IMG/VR virus record: IMGVR_UViG_3300028602_000006
Length of the DNA stretch: 64,000 nt
From: a virus
Taxonomy: Duplodnaviria > Heunggongvirae > Uroviricota > Caudoviricetes
Strand: one strand, 5' to 3'
The notes under the pieces are model-generated. The model had not been told where the DNA came from, made no database searches, and was given only the letters and a program-made list of their open reading frames with translations. Shown piece after piece: positions 2,317 to 33,028 of this stretch; positions within the stretch are counted from its first letter, which is position 1; every line of letters starts with the position of its first letter. Made by a program: the position numbers and the translations under genes.

Positions 2317-2424
2317 ATGATGGAAGTACAAAAATATATTAGGGAAAACGGTCTCGATAAACTTCGGGAAGAATTTTCGATAATTGTTACCGATTATCCT
2401 GACCGAATTGGAGCAATATTATGA
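2317..2424 (+). other. 35-aa leader ORF homologous to the N-terminus of the RNA-ligase-like gene at 7102, translationally coupled (ATGA) to the nuclease-helicase gene
   Basis: Hand translation gives MMEVQKYIRENGLDKLREEFSIIVTDYPDRIGAIL. This aligns with MTMHVQKYLREKGLKSLIDEFHIDVREYDDRIV of the 7102 ORF at roughly 60 percent identity. Its stop TGA at 2422-2424 overlaps the ATG at 2421. Confidence 0.5.
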
Positions 2425-4619: not shown

Positions 4620-4684
4620 ATATTATTGACATTGCTTGTCGGATATGTTAATCTTTTCATATCTTAAATGGTAAAGGATATTTA

Positions 4685-5881
4685 ATGAGTCAAGAAAAAA
4701 TATTGGATGCTCAAGCTGTTAGAAGTGTTTATGAGAAGTTTTCTATAGATTTGCCAAATATAGGCAATCTACAGAACGTTTTTACTCCTTATTCGCTTTG
4801 CAAGGATATGATTGGACGCCTGAAGAAGTATAAGAGGAAGTTTGAAGGAGCGAACTTCTCTGTTTTTAATCTTGAATTTGCTGAAGTTTTAATGTATGAT
4901 TATGGAGTTAAGGCAAATCAGATTTGGTTCTTTACTGATTGTGTTGAGAAGAGCAAATTCGCTCAGTTGAATAGGTATGCGGGGTTGAATGTCGAATTGG
5001 TTAATTTAAGCCGATTCTTACGGGAGAAGATTACTATGAAATTTGATGTTGTTATTATGAATCCGCCTTATCAGGCCCCTAAAGCCAAAGAGCACGAAGG
5101 GAGAGGAAAATGTGGAACATCGCTGTGGGAAGATTTTGTTAGGAAATCCTTTGAATTGGCGAAAGATGATGGATATGTTTGTGCTATTCACCCTAATAGG
5201 TGGAGAAGACCCGAGGGCAAAATTGGCGAATTAATTAAGTCAAAACAAATTCATTATCTTGAAATGCATGGACTGGAAGACGGAAGGAAAACATTTTCTT
5301 GCCAAACCGATTATGATTGGTATATTGCTCAAAACAAAAAATCAGAGACCAATACGCAAGTTGTAGACTATGATGGTGAATCAAATTCAATTGATTTGAA
5401 AAACGCTCCTTTCATTCCCAACTCCAATGTGAAAGATGTTTTGTCTCTCGTCGCAAAAGAAGGAGAAGAAAAAGTCAATTTGTTATGGAACTGTGAATAT
5501 CATACTCAAGCAAGAGCAAAAGACGGAACGATGTCACCAATACAAACCGATGAATTTAAATACCCTTGTGTTTATTCTGTAACAATCAAAGGAGAAGTTA
5601 AGTTTTGGTACTCAAGCAAAAAAGAACAATTTTTTGGAATTCCTAAGGTCATATGTTGCAATGGTCATACTATGCCAATTGTTGACAAAAATGGGGAGTA
5701 CGGATTAACTCAATTCGCATTTGGAATAGCTGATAAAAAAACAAATTTAGAAAAAATACAAAATGTTATGAATTCTGATGAATTCAGGAAAACAATAATG
5801 GGTTATAGAGATAATGGTGGCAATGTTTATGACAAGAACATGATAGCAACTTTCCGCAAAGATTTTTGGAACGAAATATGA
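4685..5881 (+). CDS. N6-adenine DNA methyltransferase (NPPY) with C-terminal putative target-recognition region
   Basis: VVIMNPPYQAP is a motif IV. Upstream NVFTPYSLCKDMI is a motif X-like element. No clear FxGxG motif I in this ORF. Confidence 0.6.
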   Translation: MSQEKILDAQAVRSVYEKFSIDLPNIGNLQNVFTPYSLCKDMIGRLKKYKRKFEGANFSVFNLEFAEVLMYDYGVKANQIWFFTDCVEKSKFAQLNRYAGLNVELVNLSRFLREKITMKFDVVIMNPPYQAPKAKEHEGRGKCGTSLWEDFVRKSFELAKDDGYVCAIHPNRWRRPEGKIGELIKSKQIHYLEMHGLEDGRKTFSCQTDYDWYIAQNKKSETNTQVVDYDGESNSIDLKNAPFIPNSNVKDVLSLVAKEGEEKVNLLWNCEYHTQARAKDGTMSPIQTDEFKYPCVYSVTIKGEVKFWYSSKKEQFFGIPKVICCNGHTMPIVDKNGEYGLTQFAFGIADKKTNLEKIQNVMNSDEFRKTIMGYRDNGGNVYDKNMIATFRKDFWNEI

Positions 5882-6453
5882 AAACCACCACAAAAACTTG
5901 TACCAAACGCCAAAATCGAAAAAAACAAACTGCTGAGGATTTTACTCCGGCATGGTTGGTTAATCAAATGCTCGACAAGTTAAATGAATATGGAAAAGAA
6001 TCATGGGAAGAAGGGAAAACTTTTCTTGATCCTGCTTGCGGGAATGGAAATATGCTCGTATGTGTTTTGAAGCGTAAAATAAAACTAGGACATGATCCAT
6101 CAGAGGCATTGAAAACTATCTATGGAACCGACATAATGGATGATAATATCAAAGAGTGTCGCTTAAGGCTCCTTAAAATTATTCAAGAAGAAGGAATTAA
6201 AATAACACTTGAGCACATTAAATCTGTGTTTAATAATATTATTGTAACGAGATTGAGTAGATACAAAAGTGGATCTCTTGACTATAATTTCAAATTCAAA
6301 AACAAAGCATCGCATAAAGATGTTATTAAGTGGTTAGACGGAATACAGAACCACAACTGGCTTGAGTTAGTGGGACACGAAAACATTAATGCCATCATAA
6401 AAAATGACGTTGAAGCTAGTTTTGTTGAAGAGAAATTTGCCGCATTCTTTTAA
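5866..6453 (+). CDS. Methyltransferase N-terminal-like fragment (motif X + motif I + post-I, no NPPY)
   Basis: FTPAWLVNQML, LDPACGNGNMLV (FxGxG-type) and IYGTDIMDD. Overlaps the previous ORF by 16 nt in another frame. Confidence 0.45.
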   Translation: MERNMKTTTKTCTKRQNRKKQTAEDFTPAWLVNQMLDKLNEYGKESWEEGKTFLDPACGNGNMLVCVLKRKIKLGHDPSEALKTIYGTDIMDDNIKECRLRLLKIIQEEGIKITLEHIKSVFNNIIVTRLSRYKSGSLDYNFKFKNKASHKDVIKWLDGIQNHNWLELVGHENINAIIKNDVEASFVEEKFAAFF

Positions 6454-7101: not shown

Positions 7102-8343
7102 ATGACAATGCATGTTCAAAAGTATTTACGAGAAAAAGGTCTTAAATCTCTGATAGATGAATTCCATATAGACGTTCGTGAATATGATGACCGAATTGTC
7201 TTGAATTACGATCAAATAGAATCGCCGAGGTTTCATCCTATTTGTGATGAATGCCGAGCGCTTATTCTCCGTAAGTCTGATTGGTCAGTAATGGCTCGCT
7301 CGTTCGATAGGTTCTATAATTGGGGAGAAGGCGTAGAAGATCGTGTTCTTAAAGAAAATCCTTTAATGCAAAGAATTACTATCGATCCTTTTTCATCTAC
7401 AATATACGATGGAAATAACAAGTTTATGCCGTTCCCCTTGCAAAACTCTCTAGTGCAAGAAAAACTAGATGGGTCTCTCATATCTGTATATTGGGACGGA
7501 GAAGATTGGTGCGCTTCAACTAGAAAGATGGCCCATGCTGAGGGTCAAACTAATTTCGGAACCACATTTTCTGAAATATTCTGGGGCGTAGATAAGGATT
7601 TGAAAGAAAAACTTTCCAAGTCTAATTGCCATCAGCAAACTATTGTTTTTGAACTAACGGGGCCAGCGAATAGGATCGTGACCGCTTATCCTAATACAGG
7701 AATAACTTTAATCGGAGGCCGGTGGAACCTAGAGAGCCTTGACTATAAGGAACTAACTGCCAAAGAGCTAGATGACTTGGAAAAATCATGGGGTATAACC
7801 CGACCAAAAAATTACGAGGTCGATGATGCTACTAATTTAATCTCATTAGTTCATGGATTTCCCGCCATGGACGAGGGAGTTGTCTTGGTATATGAAAATA
7901 CAAATGGCTCTCATTTTCGTGTGAAGGTGAAAAACCCTCGTTATGTAGCTATCGCTAATATGAGGGCTAATGGAGGTATTTCACCTAAGCGAATTCTCTT
8001 TCTTATTATGGAGAATGAACATCACGAGTATTTGAAATATTTTGAGGAAGATCTCAAATACTTCAAATTTGTTGAGGAAGAATATCTCGAAGCAATAAAT
8101 CGTATTACAAATACATGGAATAAGGTAAAAGACATTAAAGATCAGAAAGAGTTCGCTTTGACAATGATGCCTCTTACTGAATATTCATTTGAAAAAGGTT
8201 TATTGTTTTCCGTCAGAAAAAACGGGACAACTGTTGAACAAGAACTTAAGAAAATAGAACCGAAGAAAATTGCGTTATCAATGAATCTTAAGGGGAAATT
8301 CGCCAAAGAATTTGGTGTACAAACGGAGGAAGAAGATGAGTAA
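7102..8343 (+). CDS. ATP-dependent RNA ligase-like nucleotidyltransferase (Rnl1-like)
   Basis: Motif I KxDG in QEKLDGSLISVYW. Size 413 aa. SD GGAGAAATATTATG. Confidence 0.5.
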   Translation: MTMHVQKYLREKGLKSLIDEFHIDVREYDDRIVLNYDQIESPRFHPICDECRALILRKSDWSVMARSFDRFYNWGEGVEDRVLKENPLMQRITIDPFSSTIYDGNNKFMPFPLQNSLVQEKLDGSLISVYWDGEDWCASTRKMAHAEGQTNFGTTFSEIFWGVDKDLKEKLSKSNCHQQTIVFELTGPANRIVTAYPNTGITLIGGRWNLESLDYKELTAKELDDLEKSWGITRPKNYEVDDATNLISLVHGFPAMDEGVVLVYENTNGSHFRVKVKNPRYVAIANMRANGGISPKRILFLIMENEHHEYLKYFEEDLKYFKFVEEEYLEAINRITNTWNKVKDIKDQKEFALTMMPLTEYSFEKGLLFSVRKNGTTVEQELKKIEPKKIALSMNLKGKFAKEFGVQTEEEDE

Positions 8344-8546
8344 AAATACAGTATTTGACATATCTACGGACATTGCAAATTGTTTTCCTGTATCTATGGA
8401 ATACAAACGGAAAATCAGGAATATGATACTTCGAGCCGCTAAACAAGCTATTCTAGAGCAGCAATTGGATAATACTACAATTGATTCAATAAATAGGTGG
8501 ATAGAGGCTGGCTAATATTCACTAAAATAAACTTTGCTTAAATTAC

Positions 8547-8574
8547 TTGATTTTTGGTCTAGTTATAGTATAAT
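8547..8574 (+). promoter_or_regulatory. Sigma70-like promoter (TTGATT-16-TATAAT)
   Basis: TTGATT at 8547 with a 16-nt spacer to a perfect TATAAT at 8569-8574. Lies upstream of 8602. Confidence 0.5.
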
Positions 8575-8601
8575 GGGGTTGTTGAATAAGATTGAATATA
8601 A

Positions 8602-9411
8602 TTGAAAGGAATAAATATGAAGATACATTTGTTGACGATTGATCCTCAGCGAGATTTCTGTAGTCCAAACGGCGCTCTTTTTGTTCAGGATGCAGATCAA
8701 GACATGATTCGTTTAGCGGCAATGGTTGACCGTTTGCGCAATAAAATTGATGATATCCACGTTACGCTGGATAGCCACAATGAAGTAGACATTGCTCACC
8801 CTATATTCTGGATTGATTCTAACGGAGCGCATCCTAATCCCTTTACTATTATTACAGAAGAGGATGTTGTCAAGGGTGTATGGACAACTACTAGGCCAAC
8901 ATGCCGCCAGCGAGCAGTTGATTATGTTAAAGCCTTAGCTTCCAACGGGCGCTACCCTCTTTGTATTTGGCCTCCTCACTGTATTATCGGTACAGAAGGA
9001 TGGACAATTCAGCAGCCTCTTGCTGACTCATTGTCAAATTGGTGCAAAGATCGCTTTAAGAAAGTAGATTATCAGGTTAAGGGTTCAAACGTATTTACTG
9101 AGCACTATAGCGTTTTCAGGGCAGATGTAATAGATCCGTCTGATCCATCAACGATGTTAAACACTGATCTCATTAAGGTTATTTCTGAAGCTGACGAAAT
9201 TTTGATCGCTGGCGAAGCAAGAAGCCATTGTGTCAATCATAGTTTTCGTGATCTTATCGGGGAACTTGGCAAGGAACACGCTCAGAAGTTCATTCTTCTT
9301 GAGGACGCTATGAGTGATGTAACGGGATTCGAAAATCTTGGAAAACAGTTTTTCGATGATATGATAGCTCTCGGCGTAAAATCAACCACAACTAAAGATT
9401 ATCTTGCATAA
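8602..9411 (+). CDS. Isochorismatase-family cysteine hydrolase (nicotinamidase PncA-like)
   Basis: N-terminal LLTIDPQRDFC (Asp of the D-K-C triad) and C-terminal GEARSHCVNHS (catalytic Cys context). Confidence 0.5.
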   Translation: MKGINMKIHLLTIDPQRDFCSPNGALFVQDADQDMIRLAAMVDRLRNKIDDIHVTLDSHNEVDIAHPIFWIDSNGAHPNPFTIITEEDVVKGVWTTTRPTCRQRAVDYVKALASNGRYPLCIWPPHCIIGTEGWTIQQPLADSLSNWCKDRFKKVDYQVKGSNVFTEHYSVFRADVIDPSDPSTMLNTDLIKVISEADEILIAGEARSHCVNHSFRDLIGELGKEHAQKFILLEDAMSDVTGFENLGKQFFDDMIALGVKSTTTKDYLA

Positions 9412-9447
9412 TAAGGATTTATCTTTAATTAACTAAAGGGGTAAAAT

Positions 9448-10221
9448 ATGCCTGATATTACAAATGAAACTACTGATATGACGAATCTACAGACGGCTTC
9501 CCGTTATGGATTCAGCGCTGTAGGACTTGATTCCTTGGGCGCTTCTGAATATACATTGGCTACCGTTGTTGTGGATGTCTCAGGATCAGTATCTGGATGG
9601 GTTAAACAACTAGAAGATTGTCTTAAGGCGATTCTTAAATCATGCCAAAGTTCACCTAGAGCAGATAACCTTCTACTGCGTTTAGTTTCTTTCGGAGATA
9701 ACGTCAACGAAGTTCATGGGTTTCGTCTTTTGGGCGACATTGATCCCAATGAATATGACAATTGTTTGACAATAAAAGGATGTACCGCTCTATTTGACGC
9801 AACGCACACTTCTGTTGAAGCTACAGCAGATTATGGCAAGTTGCTTATAGATCAGGGCGATATGACTGCGAATGCGGTTATCTATGTATTGACGGATGGA
9901 GGAGATAATGCCTCGAAGAATACTGCTTCTACTATTAAGAAATTATTGCAAAAAGTTAGATCGGATGAAAAACTGGAATCAATAGCAGTTATTCTAATTG
10001 GGGTGGGGTATGACGAAGATCATCTAAAGATATATCTTGATAAGTTCAAAAATACTGCCGAACTAGATCAGTTTGTCGATTTAACTGAATTGTTTAATAA
10101 TAGCTCGCCCGACAAGGCATTAGCTAAACTTGCAGGATATGTTAGTAAAAGTATATCGTCTACTTCACAGGCGCTTGCTAGCGGATCTTCTGCCGTATCA
10201 TCTTCATTATTGACATTTTAA
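9448..10221 (+). CDS. von Willebrand factor A (vWA) domain protein, TerY-like
   Basis: MIDAS motif VVVDVSGSVSG, downstream TDGGDN, about 250 aa. Confidence 0.6.
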   Translation: MPDITNETTDMTNLQTASRYGFSAVGLDSLGASEYTLATVVVDVSGSVSGWVKQLEDCLKAILKSCQSSPRADNLLLRLVSFGDNVNEVHGFRLLGDIDPNEYDNCLTIKGCTALFDATHTSVEATADYGKLLIDQGDMTANAVIYVLTDGGDNASKNTASTIKKLLQKVRSDEKLESIAVILIGVGYDEDHLKIYLDKFKNTAELDQFVDLTELFNNSSPDKALAKLAGYVSKSISSTSQALASGSSAVSSSLLTF

Positions 10222-10259
10222 GCGGAAACAAATTAAGTTTCTGACATGGTGAGGAGCTT

Positions 10260-10294
10260 GGGGTGGAGTAGTACTGAACTCTCCACCCCTTCTT
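10260..10294 (+). terminator. Hairpin terminator candidate
   Basis: GGGGTGGAG-loop-CTCCACCCC (9-bp stem) followed by TTCTT. Confidence 0.4.
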
Positions 10295-10310
10295 ACAATA
10301 GGAGCGAAAT

Positions 10311-10607
10311 ATGATTAAGTATAAAAACGGATTTGCAGGCCATATCGAAACATTAGAAATTGGCGATAGAATGTCTGTATTTTCTGGCCAAAGTTTTTAT
10401 CCTAATTGTTTGTTTATTAAAGTTACTTCGAAAGGGTTCAACATACTTAATGTCGATACGAATAGAGTGGTTCTGAAAAGGCATTTATATATGAGAGGAA
10501 TGGGTGGTAAACAATACCCTAAATATGGAGTCATTAAAGGAAATTTTGTTATTCCATCATGGTTATCTATACAGAAGAAATCACAAGAAAGAGAAATTGC
10601 GTCATAA
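10311..10607 (+). CDS. Hypothetical protein
   Basis: SD GGAGCGAAATATG. No recognised motif. Confidence 0.4.
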   Translation: MIKYKNGFAGHIETLEIGDRMSVFSGQSFYPNCLFIKVTSKGFNILNVDTNRVVLKRHLYMRGMGGKQYPKYGVIKGNFVIPSWLSIQKKSQEREIAS

Positions 10608-10618
10608 AGCGAGGAGTA

Positions 10619-11100
10619 ATATGAGTATATATAGCGATATCAAAAAGAGAATTTTAGAGTGTATGAAGTCTGGCGAAGCAGAAGAGCGAGACATTTTAAG
10701 GACGCTTATAGGAGAAATCCAATCTAAGATGTCTCGTGAAGGGAAAAACGAAGCCGATGATACGATGGTTGAAAAAACACTCATTTCTTTTAAAGAAAAC
10801 GCTTATCAAAGCACACTTGAAGGGATATCTGAAAAAATTGGCGCTGAGTCCTGTACCGATGCTTGGCTGGAATCTGACAAAAGAGCAAAGATAGAAATAG
10901 CGATCTATGAAAAGTTCTTGCCCAGTTATGAATCTGTAGAAAATATTATAGTTCTATTAGAAGAGTTCAGGGATAGAATTTTATCGGCAAAATCAGATGG
11001 CCCCGCTGTAGGCATGGCGATGGGATTTTTGAAGAGTGCGGGTAAGAAAGTACAGGGCAAGGACGTATCTGAGGCCGTTGCTATTATCAGGAAGGTTTAA
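10619..11100 (+). CDS. GatB/YqeY-domain protein
   Basis: Start placed at the ATG with SD GAGGAG. IKKRILECMKSGEAEERDILRTLIGEIQ and YEKFLPSYESVENI...GPAVGMAMGFLKSAGKKVQGKDVS match the YqeY pattern. Confidence 0.5.
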
Positions 11101-11309
11101 AAAATGAAAATTAAATCTAAAAAACAAAAATATGATTCGGGGAGCGGGTCATTGTTTTTTATGTTCTATGGGTCATCCGAAGATGAGGATAAGTGGGGGA
11201 AGCTTCTTACTGTCAAGTTCGGATTCAGGAAAATAAAGAGTAATATCTTTGTTAAGCCCTAATAATTCACGGAAGATATTTAGTATTGGCGCATAAATAG
11301 GCAATAAAT

Positions 11310-12185
11310 ATGAATACAGATAGCTATTTTGAAATAGGTAACTCTCATGAAGTTTGCCAAGATTTTGCAATTTCCGGCAATATTAATGAGAATATAAGTT
11401 TTGCCATTGTAACGGACGGATGCACGACGTCTCATAATCAGTGCGCCCAAGTAGATACAGGGGCCAGAATTTTAGCCTATTCCGCAAGAGAAGCCTTAAA
11501 AAAGATTTGGGCAGATAAGGATTCAACAATATTCGAAAACACGACTCAAGAAATGGTTAGTGAATTTTTACGGAACCAATCAATTGTTACAACTAGATTG
11601 ATTGAACGTCAACTTGGTCTAGATCCATTATGTGCCGACTGTACGCTTGTTGTGGCTGTTGCAGATAAATTCGGGAATGCTCATTCTTTTGTATACGGTG
11701 ACGGATCTGTTTTTGTACAATTAAAGGATGGGTCGCAACATATGATGGATGTGACATTTTTGAGTGGAGCGCCTCTTTATTTGTCCTATCAAACAGATGA
11801 ACCCAGAAAAATTGCATATATGGGTGTTTATGGTAATCTTCCAGTCCTTATTGATCGTTATATTTTGGACGGAGGAGAAATAGAAACAAAAAACTCTAAC
11901 CAGATTTTAGCATATGATTATGGTTTATATGGAGCTTGCAATTCTCAATGGAAGGACGTTGATTTTATATCTGTAACATCCGATGGCGCTAAAAGTTTCT
12001 TGAAAAATGAGGGAAATGAAACAAACACAGTCCCTCATATTAAAATAATGAACGAATTCAATGCTATCAAAAACAGAAATGGAGTTTTCATTCAAAGAAG
12101 AATGAAGACGATGGGGAAGTCTAATAAGAAATTAAATATCTCTCATTACGATGATATTTCTATATCTGCCATTTTAGTTGGATAA
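11310..12185 (+). CDS. PP2C-family Ser/Thr phosphatase-like protein
   Basis: FAIVTDGCTTSH resembles the PP2C metal-binding xxDGHGG motif. GDGSVF lies downstream. Placed between the vWA and kinase genes. Confidence 0.45.
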   Translation: MNTDSYFEIGNSHEVCQDFAISGNINENISFAIVTDGCTTSHNQCAQVDTGARILAYSAREALKKIWADKDSTIFENTTQEMVSEFLRNQSIVTTRLIERQLGLDPLCADCTLVVAVADKFGNAHSFVYGDGSVFVQLKDGSQHMMDVTFLSGAPLYLSYQTDEPRKIAYMGVYGNLPVLIDRYILDGGEIETKNSNQILAYDYGLYGACNSQWKDVDFISVTSDGAKSFLKNEGNETNTVPHIKIMNEFNAIKNRNGVFIQRRMKTMGKSNKKLNISHYDDISISAILVG

Positions 12186-12188
12186 ATC

Positions 12189-13877
12189 ATGCCAAAAATC
12201 GCATATAATATTGAGGGAATTGGAAATGTTGTCGTAACAGACAATAATTACCTTGGGGCTGGCGGCGAGGCGAATGTCTATGCGAAGAATGATCTTGCAA
12301 TAAAGATATATCACGATCCCTCTCGGATGATACCCATTCAAAAGATAGAAGAATTGCGGGAGATTAAAGACAAACGAGTCCTCGTACCAAAGCATATTGT
12401 TTATAAATCAGGAAGCTCCCCTGTAGGGTATGCAACTCCTTTCAAACCTGATACGCATCCTTTATGTAAACTCTTCACAAAGACATTTAAAGTTAAAAGT
12501 GGGATTAGCGATGACATGATAAATAATCTCGTTGTTGAAATGCAGCAAACTATTAAGAACATACATAAGGCAAATTGCTTAGTAGTTGACTTGAATGAAA
12601 TGAACGAGCTGGTTTCTCCTAAATTCGATAACATATATTTTATTGATGTCGATAGCTATGAAACCCCATCATTCAGGGCTACGGCGATAATGGAAAGCGT
12701 CAGAGATAGGCAGATTAGAAAACAGCGATGGAATGAAGGAAGCGATTGGTATTCATTTGCCATTTTATCGTTTCAGATGTGGATTGGCATACATCCTTAT
12801 AAAGGCAAACATCCCGATTATAAACCCGCTGAGTGGACAAATCGCATGGATGAAGGCGTATCTGTATTCGATCCTAAAGTTATTTTACCTAGAACTTGCT
12901 CGGATTTGTCTGTTATACCCAAAAGTCATATAGAATGGTTGCGAGATATTTTTGTCAATGGAGCTAGATGCTCTCCGCCTGATATGTCAGACAATTTACT
13001 TATAGTTGTCCCAAATTCATTTAAATTTATTACGGCTAGTAAATCTTTTGAAACAAAACTTATAGAAACTTGTTCTGAGCTAATTAATCGAGTCTTTAAC
13101 TTTATTGGGGTTAACTATTTAATAGGCAAAACTAATATACACAGGGGCAGGGCAATCGTACCTGTTAATATTGATGGGGCAGATGAAGTGTTAATGTGCG
13201 AATCGGAGGGAGTTGACCCTATAATTTGTATTCAAAAAAACGGGATAGCCAGATTTTATTGCGAGAAAGGTCAAGAGTTTGGTTCAATATCTGCAAATTC
13301 CATGATGGCTAGAAACGGCTGTATTTATACAATATATGACGGACGTTTAATGGAAAACACATTTAGCCGCATGGGGAATAAGCTTATACATTCCTGTAGG
13401 CAATCCGCTTCTGTAATGGACTTATCGACGCAAATGTTTAATGGGGTTATAATTCAAGATATATTAAACAAGAAGTATGTTACGTTACCCTATGCGAAAG
13501 GTCTCTGCGCTCATCTTCCAGTAAAAGAACTTGATGGTTATCGCATTCTAGGCGCAAAATCCGAGCGAAATGTTTGTGCTATTATGGCTGAAAAAAGTGG
13601 TAAATATTATCGCTTTGTATTATCGTTTGGCGCAACATATTCTAATTATACTGTTAGAGTTGTTGCGGATGTTCCCTATGCCGACATCAATTTAACAGTA
13701 ATGCCCAATGGAGTCGCAGTTCTTGCCTTAGAAGATTCTGTAGAAATATTTAAAGATGAAGGTGTTAAGATAATTGACAATCCCCCATTCGACGCTACAA
13801 AAAGAATATTTAATATCTCCGGGGTTATACATTATATTGATGGGAAAGAATTATATACTGCAAAAATGAAGAGTTGA
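12189..13877 (+). CDS. Ser/Thr protein kinase-like protein with large C-terminal extension
   Basis: Gly loop GAGGEANVY, AIK lysine, catalytic-loop-like HKANCLVVDLNEMN, DFG-like IDVDSYE. Confidence 0.55.
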   Translation: MPKIAYNIEGIGNVVVTDNNYLGAGGEANVYAKNDLAIKIYHDPSRMIPIQKIEELREIKDKRVLVPKHIVYKSGSSPVGYATPFKPDTHPLCKLFTKTFKVKSGISDDMINNLVVEMQQTIKNIHKANCLVVDLNEMNELVSPKFDNIYFIDVDSYETPSFRATAIMESVRDRQIRKQRWNEGSDWYSFAILSFQMWIGIHPYKGKHPDYKPAEWTNRMDEGVSVFDPKVILPRTCSDLSVIPKSHIEWLRDIFVNGARCSPPDMSDNLLIVVPNSFKFITASKSFETKLIETCSELINRVFNFIGVNYLIGKTNIHRGRAIVPVNIDGADEVLMCESEGVDPIICIQKNGIARFYCEKGQEFGSISANSMMARNGCIYTIYDGRLMENTFSRMGNKLIHSCRQSASVMDLSTQMFNGVIIQDILNKKYVTLPYAKGLCAHLPVKELDGYRILGAKSERNVCAIMAEKSGKYYRFVLSFGATYSNYTVRVVADVPYADINLTVMPNGVAVLALEDSVEIFKDEGVKIIDNPPFDATKRIFNISGVIHYIDGKELYTAKMKS

Positions 13878-13909
13878 AAATTACATAAAATAAGGGAGCA
13901 GTTAGAAAA

Positions 13910-15109
13910 ATGAACAACGAGAATAAATCCGGTTTAACCTTATTCACTGTTATGATAATGCTGGCGTTTTTATCTATAGTGGGGGTATATGCATACAACG
14001 CTATGAGGACGGACATCTATATTTCTAACAATTATAGAGAAGGAGTTGAAGCTTTTTGTCAGGCCGATGCGGGTATTTTTTATGTTAGGGGATTAATAGA
14101 GCAACAGCTTAAAGAGGATACTCTTATATTTGTGGATGGGGATAACTCAGTTTTTTATGAGCCTCCCGAAGGATTTACATTCTTGCCTATCACTAATATA
14201 CATAAGATATCTGAGGGTATATATTGCTATGAATGTACAGGAAAGAAGAATAATTCTAGCGCTACGGTTAAGGTGGTTGTGGCCAGAAAACCTCTCCTTA
14301 TGGCAGGGCTGTTGGGGGATTTAAGATTAAACATACAACCTTTGGTGAATATTTATAGCTATGATTCCATAAGTACATTTAATCCTATTCCTTCAGACAG
14401 TTCATCAGAAGCAACCATCGGTTCAAATTTTTTAATAGAAATATCTCCCGGAGTATTTATCGACGGAGAGATAGAGATTGGACAGTCACCTGATGGGATA
14501 CCTGCTGTAATTGTGGGGGATTTAGCAGCTCCAATAGTTGATTTTGGAAGATTTGAAGAAGATCCGCTCGGCGCTATTGGAGGAGAAATTGAATCACAAT
14601 TTATCGAATATATGCAACCTGTTAATAATAACAATTTATTGGTAGATCCTCCTCAGGCAGTAGTCGGTACGGAACTATTTATGAAGAAAAATACTGCAAC
14701 TCAATTTGTTACACTAGAGGCGGGAAATTATTATCTCACTGATATTCAAATCGGTCCAGACTGTGTATTAACAATTGATGACTCAAACGGTCCCGTTAAC
14801 ATTTATCTGGACGGAGAAATGTATGCAGGCCCAGGTAGCGACATAAATAGCCCATCGCCATTGTCTTTCAGTATTTTTTCTAGGGCAGAAGATCCTATTT
14901 TAGTGCAACCAAACGGGAGTTTTGACGGGTTTATATATGCGCCATTTTCAGAAGTTACTATGAAACCGGGGAATGATGGTCATGGTGTTGTATGGGGAGA
15001 TAAAGTATATTTGTATCCTCAGGGCGATTGGTATATTGATATAAATCTTTTAAAGAGATTTTTGTCGAAAGAATTATATTTTATGAGCTGGAAAGAAATT
15101 AGAAACTGA
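13910..15109 (+). CDS. PilX-like (type IV pilus minor pilin/assembly) N-terminal domain protein
   Basis: GLTLFTVMIMLAFLSIVGVYAYNAMRTDIYISNNYREGVEAFCQADAGIFY resembles the PilX_N pattern (hydrophobic helix ... AfqAAEAGl). Confidence 0.35.
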   Translation: MNNENKSGLTLFTVMIMLAFLSIVGVYAYNAMRTDIYISNNYREGVEAFCQADAGIFYVRGLIEQQLKEDTLIFVDGDNSVFYEPPEGFTFLPITNIHKISEGIYCYECTGKKNNSSATVKVVVARKPLLMAGLLGDLRLNIQPLVNIYSYDSISTFNPIPSDSSSEATIGSNFLIEISPGVFIDGEIEIGQSPDGIPAVIVGDLAAPIVDFGRFEEDPLGAIGGEIESQFIEYMQPVNNNNLLVDPPQAVVGTELFMKKNTATQFVTLEAGNYYLTDIQIGPDCVLTIDDSNGPVNIYLDGEMYAGPGSDINSPSPLSFSIFSRAEDPILVQPNGSFDGFIYAPFSEVTMKPGNDGHGVVWGDKVYLYPQGDWYIDINLLKRFLSKELYFMSWKEIRN

Positions 15110-15119
15110 TTATTATATC

Positions 15120-15147
15120 TTGACTTAAAGCCCATATATGATATAGT
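15120..15147 (+). promoter_or_regulatory. Promoter (TTGACT ... TATGAT / TATAGT)
   Basis: TTGACT at 15120, N11, TATGAT at 15137-15142, then TATAGT. Lies about 40 nt upstream of nadE. Confidence 0.45.
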
Positions 15148-15186
15148 AACTAGAAAATTATGATTGTATCGATAAGGATTTGAATT

Positions 15187-17250
15187 ATGTCAATTGAACA
15201 AAAAATAAGTATATGTTTCGGGCAAATTGAGGTCGCTCCCGGTCTCCCTAGGGTCAACACTGAAAAAATGTTGAAGTATATCAAAGAAGCTAAAGCTGAA
15301 GCATCGGATCTATTGATATTCCCAGAATTATGCATTCCGGGATACCTTCTTGGAGATATGTGGGAACGTCCTGATTTTCTAGAAGATTGTGAAGAATGCG
15401 GTAAGAAAATAATTGAAGCTTCTCAAGGAATAACTATAGCCTTCGGGAATGTCAAAACAGATCCTAAAAATAAAAACGAAGACGGCAGAATCCGTAAATA
15501 TAATTGCTGTTTTATAGCATCAAACGGGCAATTGGTCACAACTGTCACAAAAACTTTACAGCCAAACTACAGGGAATTTGATGATAATCGCCACTTTTAT
15601 GACAAGCGTAAGCAATTGACTGATTCATATCTTTCAGAGCCAAGTACAAAGGTTTCATTTTCTGAATTCATTGATAAGGCCTATGAGCCATCCTTAACAA
15701 TAAATGGAATTAAGATTGGATTCTTACTCTGTGAAGACGCTTGGGATACAGATTATTCATTCTCTCCTATAGATGTACTCGCACCCAAATGCGATCTGAT
15801 AGTCAATATGAGTTGTTCTCCGTTTACCATGGGGAAGAACCAAAAAAGGAACAGGCTTTTCTCTCAAAGAGCTAAAAATAATAATGTTATGATTGCCTAT
15901 ATAAATAATGTGGGCATTCAAAATAACGGGAAAACAATTTATACTTTCGATGGGAATAGTTGTCTTTATGATATTAATGGTGCGCAGTTTGACCTTTCTG
16001 CTCCTTTTGAAGAAAGCCTTGAAGTTTTAAGCTTGGATTTAGATGCTCGTACAGGATCATATGAAGAGAGCGCCATTGGTTCGTCAAGCGATGATATTGA
16101 AGATTTGTATTCATCAATTTGTTATGGAATCGAAAAATTTCTTCAGCAGATAGGAGTTAATAAAGTAGTAATTGGTGTATCCGGCGGGATTGATTCGGCT
16201 GTTGTTGCGGCGTTGTTTTCTGAAATTCTTCCTCCGGAAAATATTTATCTTATTAACATGCCTAGCTCTTTTAATTCTCAAACCACAAAAGACTTGGCAA
16301 AAGACTTGGCTAAAAATCTGGGATGTAAATATAGTATAATTCCTATTGGATGTAGTATTGATCACACTAGAGAACAATTATTAAAAGAAGGATTTGATGT
16401 TAGTAAATTCGTTTTCGAGAACATTCAGGCAAGAGATCGTTCTTCCAGAATTCTTGCGGCCATTGCTTCTTCAGTAGGCGGGGTTTTCACTTGCAACGCC
16501 AATAAGTCTGAGGCAACCGTAGGGTATACGACTCTCTATGGGGATTTGTCCGGATTTTTGTGCCCATTAGCTGACGTATGGAAGACAGACGTGTACAAGC
16601 TTGCTGAGTATATAAATGATAGTAGTGATGAGATGATCATTCCCTATGGCATACTCGCAGTTAAGCCTTCGGCAGAATTAAACAACGATCAAAATGTCGA
16701 TGAGGGGAAGGGAGACCCTATTATTTACCCCTATCATGATTTGCTATTTAGAAGTTGGGTAGAAAAGTGGGAGAGGGCAACCCCCGCTGACATTCTACAA
16801 TGGGTCATAGATGATGATTTAGAAGGGAAATTAGGCTTTGAGGATGGGGATATAGTTGCCAAGTATTTTGGAGGAGATAAAAGAGCTTTTGTTGCCGACT
16901 TGGAAAGATGGTGGAATCTATATGACGGATTTGCTTATGCGAAAAGAATTCAGGCTCCTCCTGTTCTTGCGATCAGCCGCAGAAGTTACGGATTCGATCA
17001 CAGAGAAAGTTTAACCGCTCCATTTTATAGCCAAAAATATTACAAACTTCGTATGCAATATTTGGGAGAAGATTTGTCCATGAAAGAGGTTTATGACAAT
17101 TTAAAAACTATAAAAGAGAATGTCATTTTTGTTATGGCGAAAGAAGCTGGATTAGATATGGGAAAGTTTACAACCAAGGATTTAGCTCTTAAGGGATTCA
17201 TGTCCAAGATCTATGATTTATCCGATGAAGATATGGTTCATTGGGAGTGA
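15187..17250 (+). CDS. nadE: Glutamine-dependent NAD+ synthetase (nitrilase/CN-hydrolase domain + NAD synthase PP-loop domain)
   Basis: N-domain FPELCIPGY (Glu) and LLCEDAWD (Cys). C-domain PP-loop VIGVSGGIDSAVVAAL. 687 aa, typical of the fused form. Confidence 0.8.
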   Translation: MSIEQKISICFGQIEVAPGLPRVNTEKMLKYIKEAKAEASDLLIFPELCIPGYLLGDMWERPDFLEDCEECGKKIIEASQGITIAFGNVKTDPKNKNEDGRIRKYNCCFIASNGQLVTTVTKTLQPNYREFDDNRHFYDKRKQLTDSYLSEPSTKVSFSEFIDKAYEPSLTINGIKIGFLLCEDAWDTDYSFSPIDVLAPKCDLIVNMSCSPFTMGKNQKRNRLFSQRAKNNNVMIAYINNVGIQNNGKTIYTFDGNSCLYDINGAQFDLSAPFEESLEVLSLDLDARTGSYEESAIGSSSDDIEDLYSSICYGIEKFLQQIGVNKVVIGVSGGIDSAVVAALFSEILPPENIYLINMPSSFNSQTTKDLAKDLAKNLGCKYSIIPIGCSIDHTREQLLKEGFDVSKFVFENIQARDRSSRILAAIASSVGGVFTCNANKSEATVGYTTLYGDLSGFLCPLADVWKTDVYKLAEYINDSSDEMIIPYGILAVKPSAELNNDQNVDEGKGDPIIYPYHDLLFRSWVEKWERATPADILQWVIDDDLEGKLGFEDGDIVAKYFGGDKRAFVADLERWWNLYDGFAYAKRIQAPPVLAISRRSYGFDHRESLTAPFYSQKYYKLRMQYLGEDLSMKEVYDNLKTIKENVIFVMAKEAGLDMGKFTTKDLALKGFMSKIYDLSDEDMVHWE

Positions 17251-17456
17251 AATAGTGAAAGAAGAAAAAGAACATTTTCAGAAAAAGAAAGTAAACAAAC
17301 TCAACATCCAAGAGGCGAGAGATATGATGGATCTATTGAGGAAATGTGATCAAACTTTAAGCAAGAAATTCAGGCATGTCAGGGAAAGAGTAGAATACCT
17401 AGAAAAATCTAATACTTAGTAGAGGGAAAAGGGCGATCTTGCTTGAATAAAAATAC

Positions 17457-17939
17457 ATGAGCAAGATCATAAAAACTCAAATAGATGGAGTCCCCGTAGA
17501 ACTGGAAATCAGAAATGTCGGTCCTGCCTCCATTGACGAAATTCAACGCTTAAGCGAGAATTTGGCAAAAGAATCAAGCGTCCGTAATCCGTCCTCAACA
17601 GAAGTTAGAGTAATTAGAGTAGGGGATGAAAATAGGCCAGCTACGCCGGAAGAAGTTGAGAAAATTGAAGGCCAAATTAAAGATACTCCTGTTGAATTAG
17701 TGGGAGACCTTATTGAAAGCTTAAGTAACGTATCTGAAGGTAAAGAGTGGTGGCAGTCGAAGATAGTTTGGACAAATATTGCGGCCATAGTTACAGCGAT
17801 TACAGCACTATTTGGATTGCCCATTCAAATCAACCCTGAGATAGCAATGGTGCTTTTCCCTGTTATACTCGGTTTGGTAAATGTTTTTCTTAGGGGTAAG
17901 ACGGATAAGGCGATCAAGCCAATTTTTAAGAAAAATTAA
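17457..17939 (+). CDS. Hypothetical protein with C-terminal transmembrane anchor
   Basis: Hydrophobic stretch WTNIAAIVTAITALFGL...VLFPVILGLVNVF at the C-terminus. Confidence 0.4.
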   Translation: MSKIIKTQIDGVPVELEIRNVGPASIDEIQRLSENLAKESSVRNPSSTEVRVIRVGDENRPATPEEVEKIEGQIKDTPVELVGDLIESLSNVSEGKEWWQSKIVWTNIAAIVTAITALFGLPIQINPEIAMVLFPVILGLVNVFLRGKTDKAIKPIFKKN

Positions 17940-18020
17940 TTTCTTTTATTCTCCATCTTATGTATAATAATTTTGTCGATTCATTGATGGAATTTAGTTA
18001 TAAATCAAAGGAGAAAAAAT

Positions 18021-18206
18021 ATGAGAGAAATTTTTGGATTATTACTTATTTTAGCGGTTATACTTGTTATAATTTTTGGTCCTTTCATAACTATATGGAG
18101 TCTCAATACATTATTCCCATCCCTAGCAATAGCATATACCTTTAATACATGGGTCGCATCTCTTCTGCTATTCGGAGGCGGACTAATAGTATTCATTAAA
18201 CGCTAA
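18021..18206 (+). CDS. Small two-TM membrane protein (holin-like topology)
   Basis: 61 aa with two hydrophobic helices and a basic C-terminus (FIKR). SD GGAGAAAAAATATG. Confidence 0.35.
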   Translation: MREIFGLLLILAVILVIIFGPFITIWSLNTLFPSLAIAYTFNTWVASLLLFGGGLIVFIKR

Positions 18207-18227
18207 CGCTCAAATAATTATATTAGA

Positions 18228-18261
18228 AAAAAACGGTAGATATTTTTCTACCGTTTTTTCT
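18228..18261. terminator. Bidirectional rho-independent terminator
   Basis: AAAAAACGGTAGA-TATTTT-TCTACCGTTTTTTC. Perfect 7-bp stem flanked by an A-run and a T-run. Confidence 0.7.
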
Positions 18262-18323
18262 TGTTTTTGCGGGAATATGTAGTAGAATATTTAGCAGATG
18301 ATTAATAACCATAGGAGAAAAAA

Positions 18324-18689
18324 ATGACAGAAGAAAATAAGTCTAATTTTACATTAGGAACAGATGAAGAAATGGAAGTAGTAACTCCGGAGGCACAGGT
18401 TATATCCGAAGTTAAGAGCTATACAGACAATGAGGGACGCTCAATAACAGGTTTGTATCCTCTTGACGGATCGGTGGCGACATTTATAGGCGGATTTGTC
18501 GTTCAATCTAATATGGGTCCAATTCGTATGAGGATTGATTTCCCAGAAGGATTGAAGCTTGAAGAATGCTTCGACCAATTTGACTTTTTGGCGCAGGAAA
18601 CAATGCAAAAAGCGCAGGAAGAGGCAGAGAATAGAAGCCGTATTATCACACCCGATCAGGCCAGAAAATCCGGCATAATTGTTCCATAA
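18324..18689 (+). CDS. Hypothetical protein
   Basis: SD AGGAGAAAAAAATG. No motif. Confidence 0.4.
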   Translation: MTEENKSNFTLGTDEEMEVVTPEAQVISEVKSYTDNEGRSITGLYPLDGSVATFIGGFVVQSNMGPIRMRIDFPEGLKLEECFDQFDFLAQETMQKAQEEAENRSRIITPDQARKSGIIVP

Positions 18690-18857
18690 GTGATATCAGC
18701 GGAGATATAGACGGAGGGACTTTTAGCACAAAGCAATTCATGAAGGTATATGAGATTATTTGCAATAATTTCTTAAAAAGATGCTTGACATTCAGTCTGC
18801 TATATGCGAAGATGCTGAATAATTGATAGTTGAATAATAATTAGAAAGGATATAATC

Positions 18858-20192
18858 ATGGCATCGTTAGTTGAGAAAGTACATCTGATAAAGTCTGACC
18901 CAGTAAACAATAACAATAAGTTTTGGATTGGAGAATTATATGATGATGATTCCGTGGTTTGTAGATGGGGAAGAGTCGGAGATACTGGGCAAAGTAAATC
19001 ATTCCCCAGCGGAGGAAAGAAATTTTTAGATTCAAAAGTCCGCTCTAAAAAGAAATCAGGACGTAATGGTGAAATCGCATATCGAGAAATAGAAATTATA
19101 GACGGAGCAAGCGTTCCTGCACCCAAAACATCCTCTACAAAAACTACCAGCGGTAGCCAACTATCTCAAATCGCCAAAAAGCAAATTCAAACTGGTGGTA
19201 ATCCTGAGGCACTTAAACTCATTGATTACCTTGTTAAAGTTAACGCTCATCAAATCGCAAGTATGACGGGTGGCCAAATTACTTATAACTATGATACAGG
19301 TCTTTTCCAAACTCCGATGGGTCTTGTTTCTCAGGCTAATATTGATGAAGCGAGAGATAAAATTACAGGTATTGGTGATATTGTAGCAAAGAAAAAGTAC
19401 AATGATCCTAATCTTATGGAACTTACTAGGGATTATCTTATGCTTGTCCCTCAGGATATTGGGCGTAAAAGGCTTGAACTTGATGATTTTTGGTGCGATC
19501 TAACTGCCGTTCAGAAACAGGATGCTATTCTTGACGGGCTTCAAGCTTCTTTAACGCAAGCAGCTAAAACCCCCGTAAAGTCCGTCAAAGATAATAAGCC
19601 CGAAGAGCAAATATTTCAAACTAAGCTCGAACTCGTTTCCGATCCTAAGGCGATTAAGAAAATAAAGGACTTATACCATAAAACTCGTCAGTCTATGCAT
19701 AATTGTTATCACCTTGATGTCAAAAAAGTATATACAATTGATATTAATACGGTTCAAGATGCGTTCAAAAGAGACGGCGCTAAGATGGATAATGTTTGGG
19801 ATCTTTGGCATGGGACTAGAGCGAGTAATCTACTCTCCATTCTTAAGGGCGGATTGATTATTCCGCCGTCAAATGCATCAAATGTTACTGGGCGTATGTT
19901 CGGAAATGGGGTTTACGCTTCTGATCAGTCCACAAAGGCTCTTAACTATGCTTATGGATATTGGGGCGGGGGCAAATCAGATGACAACTGCTTTATGTTC
20001 CTTCTTAAAATGGCCATGGGTAATTATTACACTCCTAAAAGTCCGTTTTCAGCTAACTCTGCTCCCAAAGGCTATGATTCCACCTTTGCACAGGCTCATA
20101 AGAGCGGGGTATATAATAACGAAATGATTGTATATAGGACATCCCAAATAAATCTTAGGTATTTGGTGGAATTTAGTCCGAATGGTAAATAA
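18858..20192 (+). CDS. Poly(ADP-ribose) polymerase-like protein (WGR domain + PARP catalytic domain)
   Basis: N-terminal WGR (FWIGELYDD...CRWGRVGDTGQ). Catalytic H-Y-E triad context HGTRASN...GIYFA-like GNGVYASDQ...YNNEMIVY. Confidence 0.75.
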   Translation: MASLVEKVHLIKSDPVNNNNKFWIGELYDDDSVVCRWGRVGDTGQSKSFPSGGKKFLDSKVRSKKKSGRNGEIAYREIEIIDGASVPAPKTSSTKTTSGSQLSQIAKKQIQTGGNPEALKLIDYLVKVNAHQIASMTGGQITYNYDTGLFQTPMGLVSQANIDEARDKITGIGDIVAKKKYNDPNLMELTRDYLMLVPQDIGRKRLELDDFWCDLTAVQKQDAILDGLQASLTQAAKTPVKSVKDNKPEEQIFQTKLELVSDPKAIKKIKDLYHKTRQSMHNCYHLDVKKVYTIDINTVQDAFKRDGAKMDNVWDLWHGTRASNLLSILKGGLIIPPSNASNVTGRMFGNGVYASDQSTKALNYAYGYWGGGKSDDNCFMFLLKMAMGNYYTPKSPFSANSAPKGYDSTFAQAHKSGVYNNEMIVYRTSQINLRYLVEFSPNGK

Positions 20193-20276
20193 AAAAGAAG
20201 AAGGGATAAATGTAATGCGAGAAGTAGAAATTTTCCCGCTCATGGAAGAACTTTGTAAATAAGATTTATTAAAAAA

Positions 20277-20408
20277 CGTCGGGTAGCTTAGTTGGGAAGG
20301 TAAATGTAACCCTGTCGTTCGTCACTCATGATATCATGATGACGACTTCAAAGCGTAGGGCAAGGAACGGCTCTAAGATCGGTGGTTCGAATCCATCCCC
20401 GACGACCA
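20277..20408 (+). tRNA. tRNA-like gene, atypically long (132 nt) with about 56-nt insertion; isotype undetermined
   Basis: 7-bp acceptor CGTCGGG/CCCGACG, discriminator A, CCA encoded. D-arm GCTT-AGTTGGGA-AGGT. Canonical T-arm GGTGG-TTCGAAT-CCATC. Central palindromic hairpin TCATGATATCATGA interrupts the anticodon region. Confidence 0.5.
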
Positions 20409-20456
20409 AAATAGAGATATGAAAGAATTATAGTCGCAAAGAATAGAGATTAGCTA

Positions 20457-32455: not shown

Positions 32456-33028
32456 ATGAATGAAACAAACAGAGATATTTTGAAAAACCATTTTAGTCGT
32501 ATTGATTTTGACCCTAGGTTTAAATCAGATAACATTATTTATTGGTTTGACGGAACAGAATACTCATTCTTGAGCAATTTTCATATGCACCCCATAAAAT
32601 ATAATGGGAAAGTTTATGCATCAACGGAACACGCCTTTCAAGCCGCAAAAACCCTCGATGATATGTGGAAAGAAGCTATCCGTATTACAAAAACTCCCGG
32701 AGAAGCTAAGAGAAAGGGAGGTTTATGCCCCTTGAGACCCGATTGGGAGGAAGTAAAAAATTCAGTCATGGCCGAAGTATTGGAAATAAAGTTTCAAGGC
32801 CCTTATCTACAAGACGCATTACTTAACACCTATCCGAATTATCTTGTTGAAGGTACGCTATGGCATGATAACTGGTGGGGGATTTGCCTATTGAAAGATT
32901 GCAAGAAATGTGAAGATAAGAAGGCGTTAAACATGTTAGGAATTCTTTTAATGGAATTGAGAGAAAAAATACTAACAAGACGATTACAGGAAGAGGTTGA
33001 TCTAGTTAGGGGCATTGAAGGTAATTAA
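32456..33028 (+). CDS. NADAR (YbiA-like, DUF1768) domain protein
   Basis: YWFDGTEYSFLSNFHMHPI...ASTEHAFQAAKT...WHDNWWG are hallmark NADAR blocks. Confidence 0.7.
   Translation: MNETNRDILKNHFSRIDFDPRFKSDNIIYWFDGTEYSFLSNFHMHPIKYNGKVYASTEHAFQAAKTLDDMWKEAIRITKTPGEAKRKGGLCPLRPDWEEVKNSVMAEVLEIKFQGPYLQDALLNTYPNYLVEGTLWHDNWWGICLLKDCKKCEDKKALNMLGILLMELREKILTRRLQEEVDLVRGIEGN

Follow-up and report, generated by a model that had tools for sequence, protein, structure and literature searches.

The window analysed here, a stretch of DNA of 64,000 nucleotides, corresponds to bases 1-64,000 of the metagenomic contig ena:ERZ27250894:k141_2398814 (182,571 bases), and together with its extension it gives a readable sequence of contig bases 1-71,424. 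The GC content of the window is about 0.36, and nearly all its genes lie on the plus strand. The subject of this work is the region between positions 8617 and 17250, which carries genes for a PncA-like amidohydrolase with nicotinamidase fold, a von Willebrand factor A (vWA) domain protein, a PP2C-type protein phosphatase, a Ser/Thr protein kinase and, at its distal end, the glutamine-dependent nicotinamide adenine dinucleotide (NAD+) synthetase NadE. Two further genes are inserted between those for vWA and PP2C and one between those for the kinase and NadE, and a gene for a PARP1-like protein sits 1.6 kb downstream of NadE. The coordinates are collected in Table 1.

A four-gene cassette common to bacteria and huge phages

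The neighbourhood of the PncA-like gene was compared across three sets of loci. The viral set consisted of 80 contigs with a PncA-like relative, and was supplemented by loci taken from deposited phages and from long metagenomic contigs; the bacterial and archaeal set consisted of 80 loci from assemblies, out of at least 592 hits, and included complete Capsulimonadaceae chromosomes; and a reciprocal set, with the kinase as its centre, added 78 viral loci. The analysis comprised a tblastn pass, an unbiased clustering of all open reading frames (ORFs), identification of the clusters with NCBIfam and Pfam, and family hidden Markov models (HMMs) run over all ORFs. Dereplication at 90% identity of the PncA-like protein, with at least 8 kb of sequence required on each side, left 61 phage and 23 bacterial loci, in which a gene was counted as present when it occurred within 10 kb of the PncA-like gene. 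The percentages so obtained come from related genomes, with kinship included, and some of the bacterial-labelled contigs from metagenome-assembled genomes (MAGs) may be mis-binned phage, like the present contig; complete chromosomes are unaffected by this reservation.

In the first tblastn pass, most loci had genes for vWA, PP2C, and kinase immediately downstream of the PncA-like gene, and NadE turned up infrequently. With the family HMMs, vWA is present in 89% of the phage and 65% of the bacterial loci, PP2C in 89% and 48%, the kinase in 90% and 57%, and the full triad in 52/61 and 10/23, respectively, with a median gap from the stop of the PncA-like gene to the start of the vWA gene of 54 nt in phages and 72 nt in bacteria. 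NadE is present in 34% of the phage loci and in 0/23 of the bacterial ones. When the test is reversed, the PncA-like gene is found in 69 of 71 kinase-centred viral loci. The PncA-like gene is, in other words, an almost obligate partner of vWA-PP2C-kinase, and NadE is an optional neighbour. The original prediction had taken PncA and NadE to be a pair that flanks a separate signalling triad, and this division has to be abandoned, since the PncA-like gene is itself the first gene of the cassette.

The families that recur in these neighbourhoods were identified as NrtR (a Nudix domain with the NrtR winged helix), PncB, NadD, Prs, Tpt1/KptA, NADAR, and a metallophosphoesterase. PncB occurs in 31% of the phage and 30% of the bacterial loci, NrtR in 26% of both, NadD in 16% and 0, and PARP as well as NADAR in 11% and 1/23. 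The PncB of the relatives is bona fide (401 bits against a cut-off of 379; example L056:18564-19778), although identity among the phage PncBs is just 29-48%. At least one of PncB, NadD, and NadE is found in 32/61 phage loci, and PncA, PncB, NadD, and NadE occur all together in four.

The order of these genes varies from one group of genomes to another. The complete Capsulimonadaceae chromosomes (GC 0.61-0.68) have the order pncA-vWA-PP2C-kinase-pncB, where 12-90 nt separate pncB from the gene before it, and in Pyrinomonadaceae the order is NrtR-Tpt1-pncA-vWA-PP2C-kinase. In loci L019, L020, L051, and L084 it is pncA-vWA-pncB-nadE-PP2C-nadD-kinase, with genes that abut or overlap. The relatives most syntenic with the window, L007 and L011, share RuvB, Rnl1, the PncA-like protein, and NadE with it; they are without the triad, and their PncA-like and NadE genes lie about 1-1.5 kb apart. 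These loci show a four-gene cassette (PncA-like, vWA, PP2C, kinase) that is common to bacteria and huge phages, and that has repeatedly been joined to, or interleaved with, genes for PncB, NadD, NadE, Prs, and NrtR. Since the proximity of the NAD+ genes is kept across many gene orders, it argues for functional coupling, more than for inherited order alone.

The idea that PncA and NadE are chance neighbours was considered and rejected, as their proximity survives many different gene orders in the relatives. In one locus, L054, two PncA-like genes (9908-10786 and 14679-15554) occur inside a PncB-NadE-PncA-vWA-PP2C-kinase-PncA-NadD-NrtR island. A nearest-neighbour analysis found phage and bacterial PncA-like sequences partly intermixed, which is consistent with exchange between phages and bacteria. 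Gene fusions of the PncA-like protein with other cassette proteins were looked for among the loci and none was found; the sole possible fusion among cassette proteins is one of vWA with PP2C, in L091.

Proteins encoded by the cassette and by nadE

The product of the first gene had been described in the original prediction as an isochorismatase-fold hydrolase with PncA-like Asp and Cys contexts, beginning at position 8602. Its start is here moved to the ATG at 8617, in line with the N-termini of homologues and with the gene call of the contig, the TTG at 8602 being an upstream in-frame codon; the rest of the description is borne out. The Pfam model Isochorismatase (PF00857) gives 24.7 bits, under its cut-off of 27, and the NCBIfam nicotinamidase model NF008623 gives 29.6 bits against a cut-off of 174, with a match to the N-terminal 55 residues only. 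The best phmmer matches in the PDB are nicotinamidases, all of them weak (E 0.005-0.08), and in these alignments the motifs DPQRDF, TLDSH...AHP, WPPHC, KGSN, and SHCV line up with the catalytic and metal motifs of yeast Pnc1, Mycobacterium tuberculosis PncA, and the Streptococcus pneumoniae nicotinamidase.

Residues D9, D52, H54, H61, W118, H121, K155, and C205 (numbering of the 264-residue protein) are invariant in 23-25 homologues with 34-82% identity, and P119 is invariant among the 23 closer ones. D9, K155, and C205 align with D8, K96, and C138 of 3pl1 and with their equivalents in yeast Pnc1, and we take them to be the Asp/Lys/Cys triad of PncA (D8, K96, and C138 in the M. tuberculosis enzyme). 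The motifs TLDSH (D52 and H54) and AHP (H61) align with TIDAH...FHP of the S. pneumoniae nicotinamidase, and WPPHC (H121) with the same motif of M. tuberculosis PncA; D52, H54, H61, and H121 are presumably the metal ligands of PncA, i.e., D49, H51, H57, and H71 in M. tuberculosis. A loss of metal ligands or of the cysteine, to which the original prediction had pointed, together with another substrate, as a reason to give up the PncA assignment, is thus not seen, as D52, H54, H61, H121, and C205 are all present and invariant.

An AlphaFold2 model, built from the homologue alignment, has a mean pLDDT score (the predicted value of the local distance difference test) of 94.7. When it is compared with the PDB by Foldseek, ranks 1-26 are all nicotinamidases (best match 2wta, E = 3.6e-15), and other amidases of the isochorismatase-like fold first appear at rank 27. 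The nicotinamidases so matched have 179-216 residues; compared with canonical PncA, the protein has about 50-80 residues more, and it differs by two insertions and a C-terminal extension. Because the catalytic and metal residues are invariant and the nearest solved folds are nicotinamidases, the assignment can be taken beyond mere membership of the isochorismatase fold: sequence and model identify the product as a divergent, longer nicotinamidase-type protein, with the predicted chemistry of a metal-dependent, Cys-nucleophile amidohydrolase of that type.

The vWA protein contains a MIDAS-type (metal ion-dependent adhesion site) DxSxS motif, read from the sequence as VVVDVSGSVSG. Its C-terminal tail (window 10090-10221) is rich in Ser, Thr, and Gln and reads LAKLAGYVSKSISSTSQALASGSS..., and the tail motif LAKLAxFVSxSISxQSQALGTG is kept in both phage and bacterial members; this Ser/Thr-rich tail is a likely phospho-acceptor. 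In the kinase, K39, D134, N139, D153, and D155, i.e., the invariant Lys and the catalytic and Mg-binding Asp/Asn residues, are invariant, and its homologues carry PF00069. The AlphaFold2 model of the kinase has a pLDDT of 89.9 and a beta-rich C-terminal half (approximately residues 285-562, window 13040-13877), which in the model appears as an all-beta, propeller-like domain. Foldseek alignments extend over the whole kinase only for LRRK2, which we take to consist of a kinase followed by a WD40 propeller, and the remaining matches are limited to the kinase domain. The genes at 10311-11100 and 13910-15109 have no counterpart in 88 related phage loci searched by tblastn; they appear to be phage-specific insertions, outside the conserved cassette.

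The nadE gene had also been called in the original prediction, from the Glu, Lys, and Cys contexts of its CN-hydrolase domain and from SGGIDS, and here the call is confirmed. The Pfam matches to NAD_synthase (147.5 bits) and CN_hydrolase (50.8 bits) are both above their thresholds; TIGR00552 gives 132 against a cut-off of 63.65, while the full-length equivalog PRK13981, with 341 against 479 for NadE, stays below its cut-off. FPEL (Glu), KTLQPNYREFDDNRHF (Lys), LLCEDAW (Cys), and SGGIDS align with the glutamine-dependent NAD+ synthetase of Acinetobacter baumannii (5kha), with which the Lys region shares the motif K...PNY..FD..R.F and the Cys region the motif LCED.W. Judged from these domains and motifs, the protein is unambiguously a glutamine-dependent NAD+ synthetase.

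Possible role of the region and competing explanations

NAD+ depletion is a major bacterial anti-phage strategy, and the rebuilding of NAD+ by phages is an established counter-defence (bioRxiv 10.1101/2024.02.11.579819; PMC13464706). The pathways NARP1, NARP2, and NARP3, which have been proven experimentally, follow amidated routes, from ADP-ribose pyrophosphate (ADPR-PP) and nicotinamide, by NAMPT and NMNAT, and by PnuC and NadR, respectively, and the papers that describe them make no mention of PncA or NadE (bioRxiv 10.1101/2024.02.11.579819; PMC13464706). The genes of the window have the same presumed purpose, i.e., that NAD+ is rebuilt from breakdown products in infection, but their predicted route would be deamidated and incomplete. 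None of the pairs Adps and Namat, NAMPT and NMNAT, or PnuC and NadR is found in the window: Pfam scans of all its ORFs of at least 70 aa gave no match to NAMPT, NMNAT, PnuC, or NadR, and therefore NARP1, NARP2, and NARP3 are absent from it.

The deamidated Preiss-Handler route has so far been noted in huge phages from annotation only. A survey of jumbo phages (Li et al. 2024, Microbiome, PMC11662467) reports, at the annotation level, phages with complete salvage or Preiss-Handler genes (a pncB-nadD-nadE cluster), pncA, and PARP, and proposes that the NAD+ genes supply enzymes of the phage or offset the depletion of NAD+. These phages resemble the present one in being huge and in carrying NAD+ salvage genes, pncA, and PARP. 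They differ in that the consulted parts of the survey mention neither a vWA/PP2C/kinase triad nor a link between pncA and such a triad, and in that the window has the first and last steps of the pathway only. NadE and PncB are also annotated in isolated jumbo phages such as Atu_ph07. PncA and NadE in a phage, as stated in the original prediction, are in this respect an already known kind of gene set.

In bacteria, ADP-ribose-responsive NrtR-pncA-pncB-nadD-nadE operons are classical units of niacin salvage (Rodionov et al. 2008, PMC2330246). Relatives of the window share their gene set and order (NrtR, PncA-like, PncB, NadD, NadE), including the ADP-ribose-responsive type of regulator. The classical operons are without vWA, PP2C, and kinase and have the canonical short PncA, whereas the window is without NrtR, PncB, and NadD. 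The islands of the relatives are NrtR niacin salvage units with a vWA/PP2C/kinase switch built in.

With moderate confidence, the region is taken to be the phage copy of a conserved NAD+ island, in which the PncA-like protein and NadE form the two ends of the Preiss-Handler pathway, the triad is a switch, and NAD+ is kept for replication. When NAD+ is cleaved in infection, either by NADase defences of the host or by the PARP of the phage, nicotinamide would be released, and the PncA-like enzyme would deamidate it to nicotinate. Nicotinate would be converted to nicotinate adenine dinucleotide (NaAD) by PncB and NadD, which would here have to be supplied by the host or encoded elsewhere in the genome, and the phage NadE would then amidate NaAD to NAD+, so that the pathway would begin with one phage enzyme and end with the other. 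The triad would work as a phosphorylation switch coupled to the PncA-like enzyme, with the tail of the vWA protein as the likely phospho-acceptor and the propeller of the kinase as the likely sensor. The net effect would be that NAD+ stays available for phage replication, and a counter-defence role is suggested by analogy with the known rebuilding pathways.

How much of the Preiss-Handler pathway the phage itself encodes depends on genes outside the window. That PncB and NadD equivalents are missing from the window, as the original prediction had noted, holds also over a longer stretch: the Pfam scans of window ORFs gave no PRPS-like, NAPRTase/NAMPT, cytidylyltransferase-like, or CTP_transf_like match, and a six-frame search of contig bases 1-71,424 with HMMs made from the PncB, NadD, NrtR, Prs, and Tpt1 of the relatives found none of the five. 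It follows that the pathway has gaps here, unless the missing steps are provided by the host or by another part of the genome. Absence from the window need not mean absence from the genome, because in complete relatives PncB and NadE are separated from the cassette by tens of kb. LR756511, for instance, has its PncA-like gene at 131.6 kb, with NadE at 99.5 kb and PncB at 160.1 kb, the latter about 28 kb from the PncA-like gene. The proposal of a Preiss-Handler variant is in this way partly supported: it gains by association, as PncB, NadD, NadE, Prs, and NrtR stand beside the PncA-like gene in relatives, and it loses by the lack of PncB and NadD in the 71 kb at hand. The observation on which it was built is confirmed.

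Several points count against the proposed role. PncB and NadD were found neither by the Pfam scans nor by the six-frame HMMs in the 71 kb, and a complete relative, LR745208, has the cassette and yet no PncB, NadD, or NadE by tblastn. The percentages given above overstate the number of independent events, because synteny among related phages is partly inherited. The PncA-like protein does not reach the curated Pfam and NCBIfam cut-offs and has its extra length; the hydrolysis of nicotinamide by its subfamily is a predicted activity, and the control of the enzyme by the triad is one that we infer. The NAD+-depleting defences of the host, finally, are an assumption, and may or may not be present.

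A more far-reaching version of the proposal, which we regard as rather doubtful, is that the nicotinamidase-like protein, vWA, PP2C, and propeller kinase make up an undescribed four-component system of bacteria and huge phages, a phosphorylation switch on nicotinamide turnover that would sense NAD+ cleavage or react to it and gate the Preiss-Handler rebuilding of NAD+, and that in phages would act as an inducible and regulated counter to NAD+-depleting immunity.

Another possible, though less probable, explanation is that the genes serve not counter-defence but the ADP-ribosylation carried out by the phage itself, with its WGR-PARP, and with Tpt1 in relatives, enzymes that use up NAD+ and set nicotinamide free. 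The nicotinamidase would then remove nicotinamide, which inhibits PARP, and NadE would top up NAD+. Yeast Pnc1 lifts the inhibition of Sir2 by nicotinamide, which speaks for such an arrangement. The PARP downstream of NadE has an intact H-Y-E triad that aligns with human PARP1, and from its sequence it is predicted to be an NAD+-consuming ADP-ribosyltransferase that releases nicotinamide; its presence at so short a distance therefore makes the NAD+ consumption of the phage itself an equally available reason for the salvage genes as host defence. The NADAR protein further downstream is a peripheral member of the same NAD/ADP-ribose gene set; genes for PARP, NADAR, and Tpt1 are found again in the vicinity of the cassette in relatives, and NAD+ consumers of jumbo phages are discussed in PMC11662467. 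However, the rarity of PARP within 10 kb of the cassette, in just 11% of the phage loci and in a single bacterial one, means that the cassette is independent of PARP. The explanation is, moreover, compatible with the NAD+ island described above and does not exclude it.

That the cassette is a conflict system of its own, similar to TerY-P, is unlikely. It would then, for instance, exclude rival phages or sense NAD+ cleavage, with the nicotinamidase-fold protein as effector or sensor, e.g., by destroying the nicotinamide that rivals need for rebuilding of the NARP1/NARP2 type, and with NadE as an independent metabolic gene. TerY-P, a stand-alone anti-phage system of vWA, PP2C, and Ser/Thr kinase in which the kinases have an OB-fold or a zinc ribbon (Anantharaman et al. 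2012; Gao et al. 2020, summarised in PMC11090510), has the same composition as the triad of the cassette, whose three domains stand in a conserved order of adjacent genes. In addition, bacterial cassettes occur without NadE or NadD, and the association between the kinase and the PncA-like gene is tight in both directions. Yet when the cassette, NadE, PARP, and RNA ligase were scanned with PADLOC, no model, TerY-P included, matched vWA or PP2C at E <= 0.01, and the sole match was a weak one of the kinase to PD-T4-6 (E = 0.0033). The kinase has a propeller-like domain in place of the OB-fold or zinc ribbon of the described TerY-P kinases, and in many genomes the cassette stands between pncA and pncB, with NrtR before it, as in a typical housekeeping salvage operon. 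Compared with TerY-P, the cassette also adds a fourth, obligate gene, the nicotinamidase-like one, and a linkage to NAD+ salvage. The triad was accordingly not filed as a member of TerY-P, given the single weak PADLOC match and the different C-terminal domain of the kinase.

Least probable of all, and improbable in itself, is that the PncA-like protein acts on another substrate, be it another carboxamide or a side chain on the Gln-rich tail of vWA, with the proximity of NadE as incidental: the unreached PncA models, the two insertions and C-terminal extension, and the lack of NadE in 66% of the phage and all of the bacterial loci would fit such a protein, but all catalytic and metal ligands of nicotinamidases are invariant in it, its nearest solved folds are nicotinamidases, ahead of other amidases of the isochorismatase family, and it is linked to PncB, a user of nicotinate, and to NrtR in phages as well as in bacteria.

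What is new, as far as checked, is a distinct nicotinamidase subfamily that is firmly tied, by gene linkage, to a kinase/phosphatase/vWA switch and is built into the Preiss-Handler operons of bacteria and huge phages. In a literature search, to which the text of the 2012 TerY-P paper did not belong, no paper was found that links a nicotinamidase or isochorismatase-fold gene with vWA, TerY, or PP2C. Should the switch control salvage, prokaryotes and their viruses would offer a rare example of NAD+ homeostasis tied to post-translational signalling, and for triads of the TerY-P-like kind a biochemical partner would have been defined. Without such a role of the triad, what remains is a further jumbo phage that carries two NAD+ genes.

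Setting of the locus in the contig

The closest deposited relatives of the PncA-like protein belong to uncultured huge phages of 462-595 kb, and the gene content of the window is of the huge-phage type, with a RuvB-like ATPase, helicases, methyltransferases, an Rnl1-type RNA ligase, TnpB elements, a radical SAM enzyme, and an M16 peptidase. A megablast of positions 8000-20500 against deposited phages gave no match. An NCBI deposit places the same contig in a Synergistaceae MAG, where the PncA-like gene has the locus tag WC119_00060; for a huge-phage contig this is probably a binning artefact, and it is possibly a hint about the host. Between positions 6400 and 20600, promoter-like sites (52 against 48.2 expected) and terminator-like sites (10 against 8.2 expected) occur at chance level, and no operon boundaries are claimed for this phage.

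Table 1. Features of the window and its extension; the genes of the NAD+ region come first, and positions with the prefix L171 refer to that locus
Feature	Position	Strand	Remarks
PncA-like nicotinamidase-fold amidohydrolase, 264 aa	8617..9411	+	first gene of the conserved four-gene cassette
vWA-domain protein	9448..10221	+	weak Pfam VWA_2 and VWA_CoxE matches; cassette HMM 315.6 bits
ORF inserted between vWA and PP2C	10311-10607	+	
YqeY/GatB-like protein inserted between vWA and PP2C	10621-11100	+	Pfam YqeY 21.1 bits (below cut-off); PHROG 1460 55 bits
PP2C-type protein phosphatase	11310..12185	+	Pfam PP2C_2 34 bits, cut-off 24; cassette HMM 258.3 bits
Ser/Thr protein kinase with C-terminal all-beta, propeller-like domain (from model)	12189..13877	+	
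PilX_N/DUF7305 protein (pilin-like N-terminus) between kinase and NadE	13910..15109	+	DUF7305 45.3 bits; PilX_N 22.1 bits
Glutamine-dependent NAD+ synthetase NadE, 687 aa	15187..17250	+	N-terminal CN-hydrolase glutaminase and PP-loop synthetase domain
WGR, PARP regulatory, and PARP catalytic protein, PARP1-like	18858..20192	+	Pfam PARP 100.8 bits, WGR 38 bits
NADAR-domain protein (ADP-ribose-related)	32456..33028	+	Pfam NADAR 76.2 bits, cut-off 35.1; relatives' HMM 143.4 bits
Rnl1-type RNA ligase	7102-8343	+	
Lysine-2,3-aminomutase-like radical SAM enzyme	27384-28553	+	
Histidine phosphatase	30167-30907	+	
M16 peptidase	38426-39682	+	
Acyl-carrier-protein-like PP-binding protein	43331-43792	+	
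TnpB (Cas12f-like TNB), first of three diverged genes	47502-48731	-	
TnpB (Cas12f-like TNB), second	55799-57282	+	
TnpB (Cas12f-like TNB), third	L171:14784-15872		
Serine resolvase	59992-60735		
ResIII helicase, Eco57I-like methyltransferase, and N6 methyltransferase fragment, copy 1	2421-6453		
Same module, copy 2	61421-64000		continues to contig base 65518 (L171:10690-14787)

There is a theme of RNA repair around the NAD island, with the Rnl1-type ligase in the window and further genes of this kind in relatives (L155:9215-9778 and L051:5991-7064), i.e., a DRB0094-type RNA ligase and the NAD+-dependent RNA 2'-phosphotransferase Tpt1/KptA, and also the metallophosphoesterase; an ORF at L022:17523-18680 is RtcB-like by eye only, without a profile scan. 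The two copies of the helicase/methyltransferase module are diverged paralogues, with 28%, 40%, and 50% amino acid identity gene by gene. A TnpB gene comes after the second copy, and one of the three TnpB genes is paired with an IS200-type Y1 transposase.

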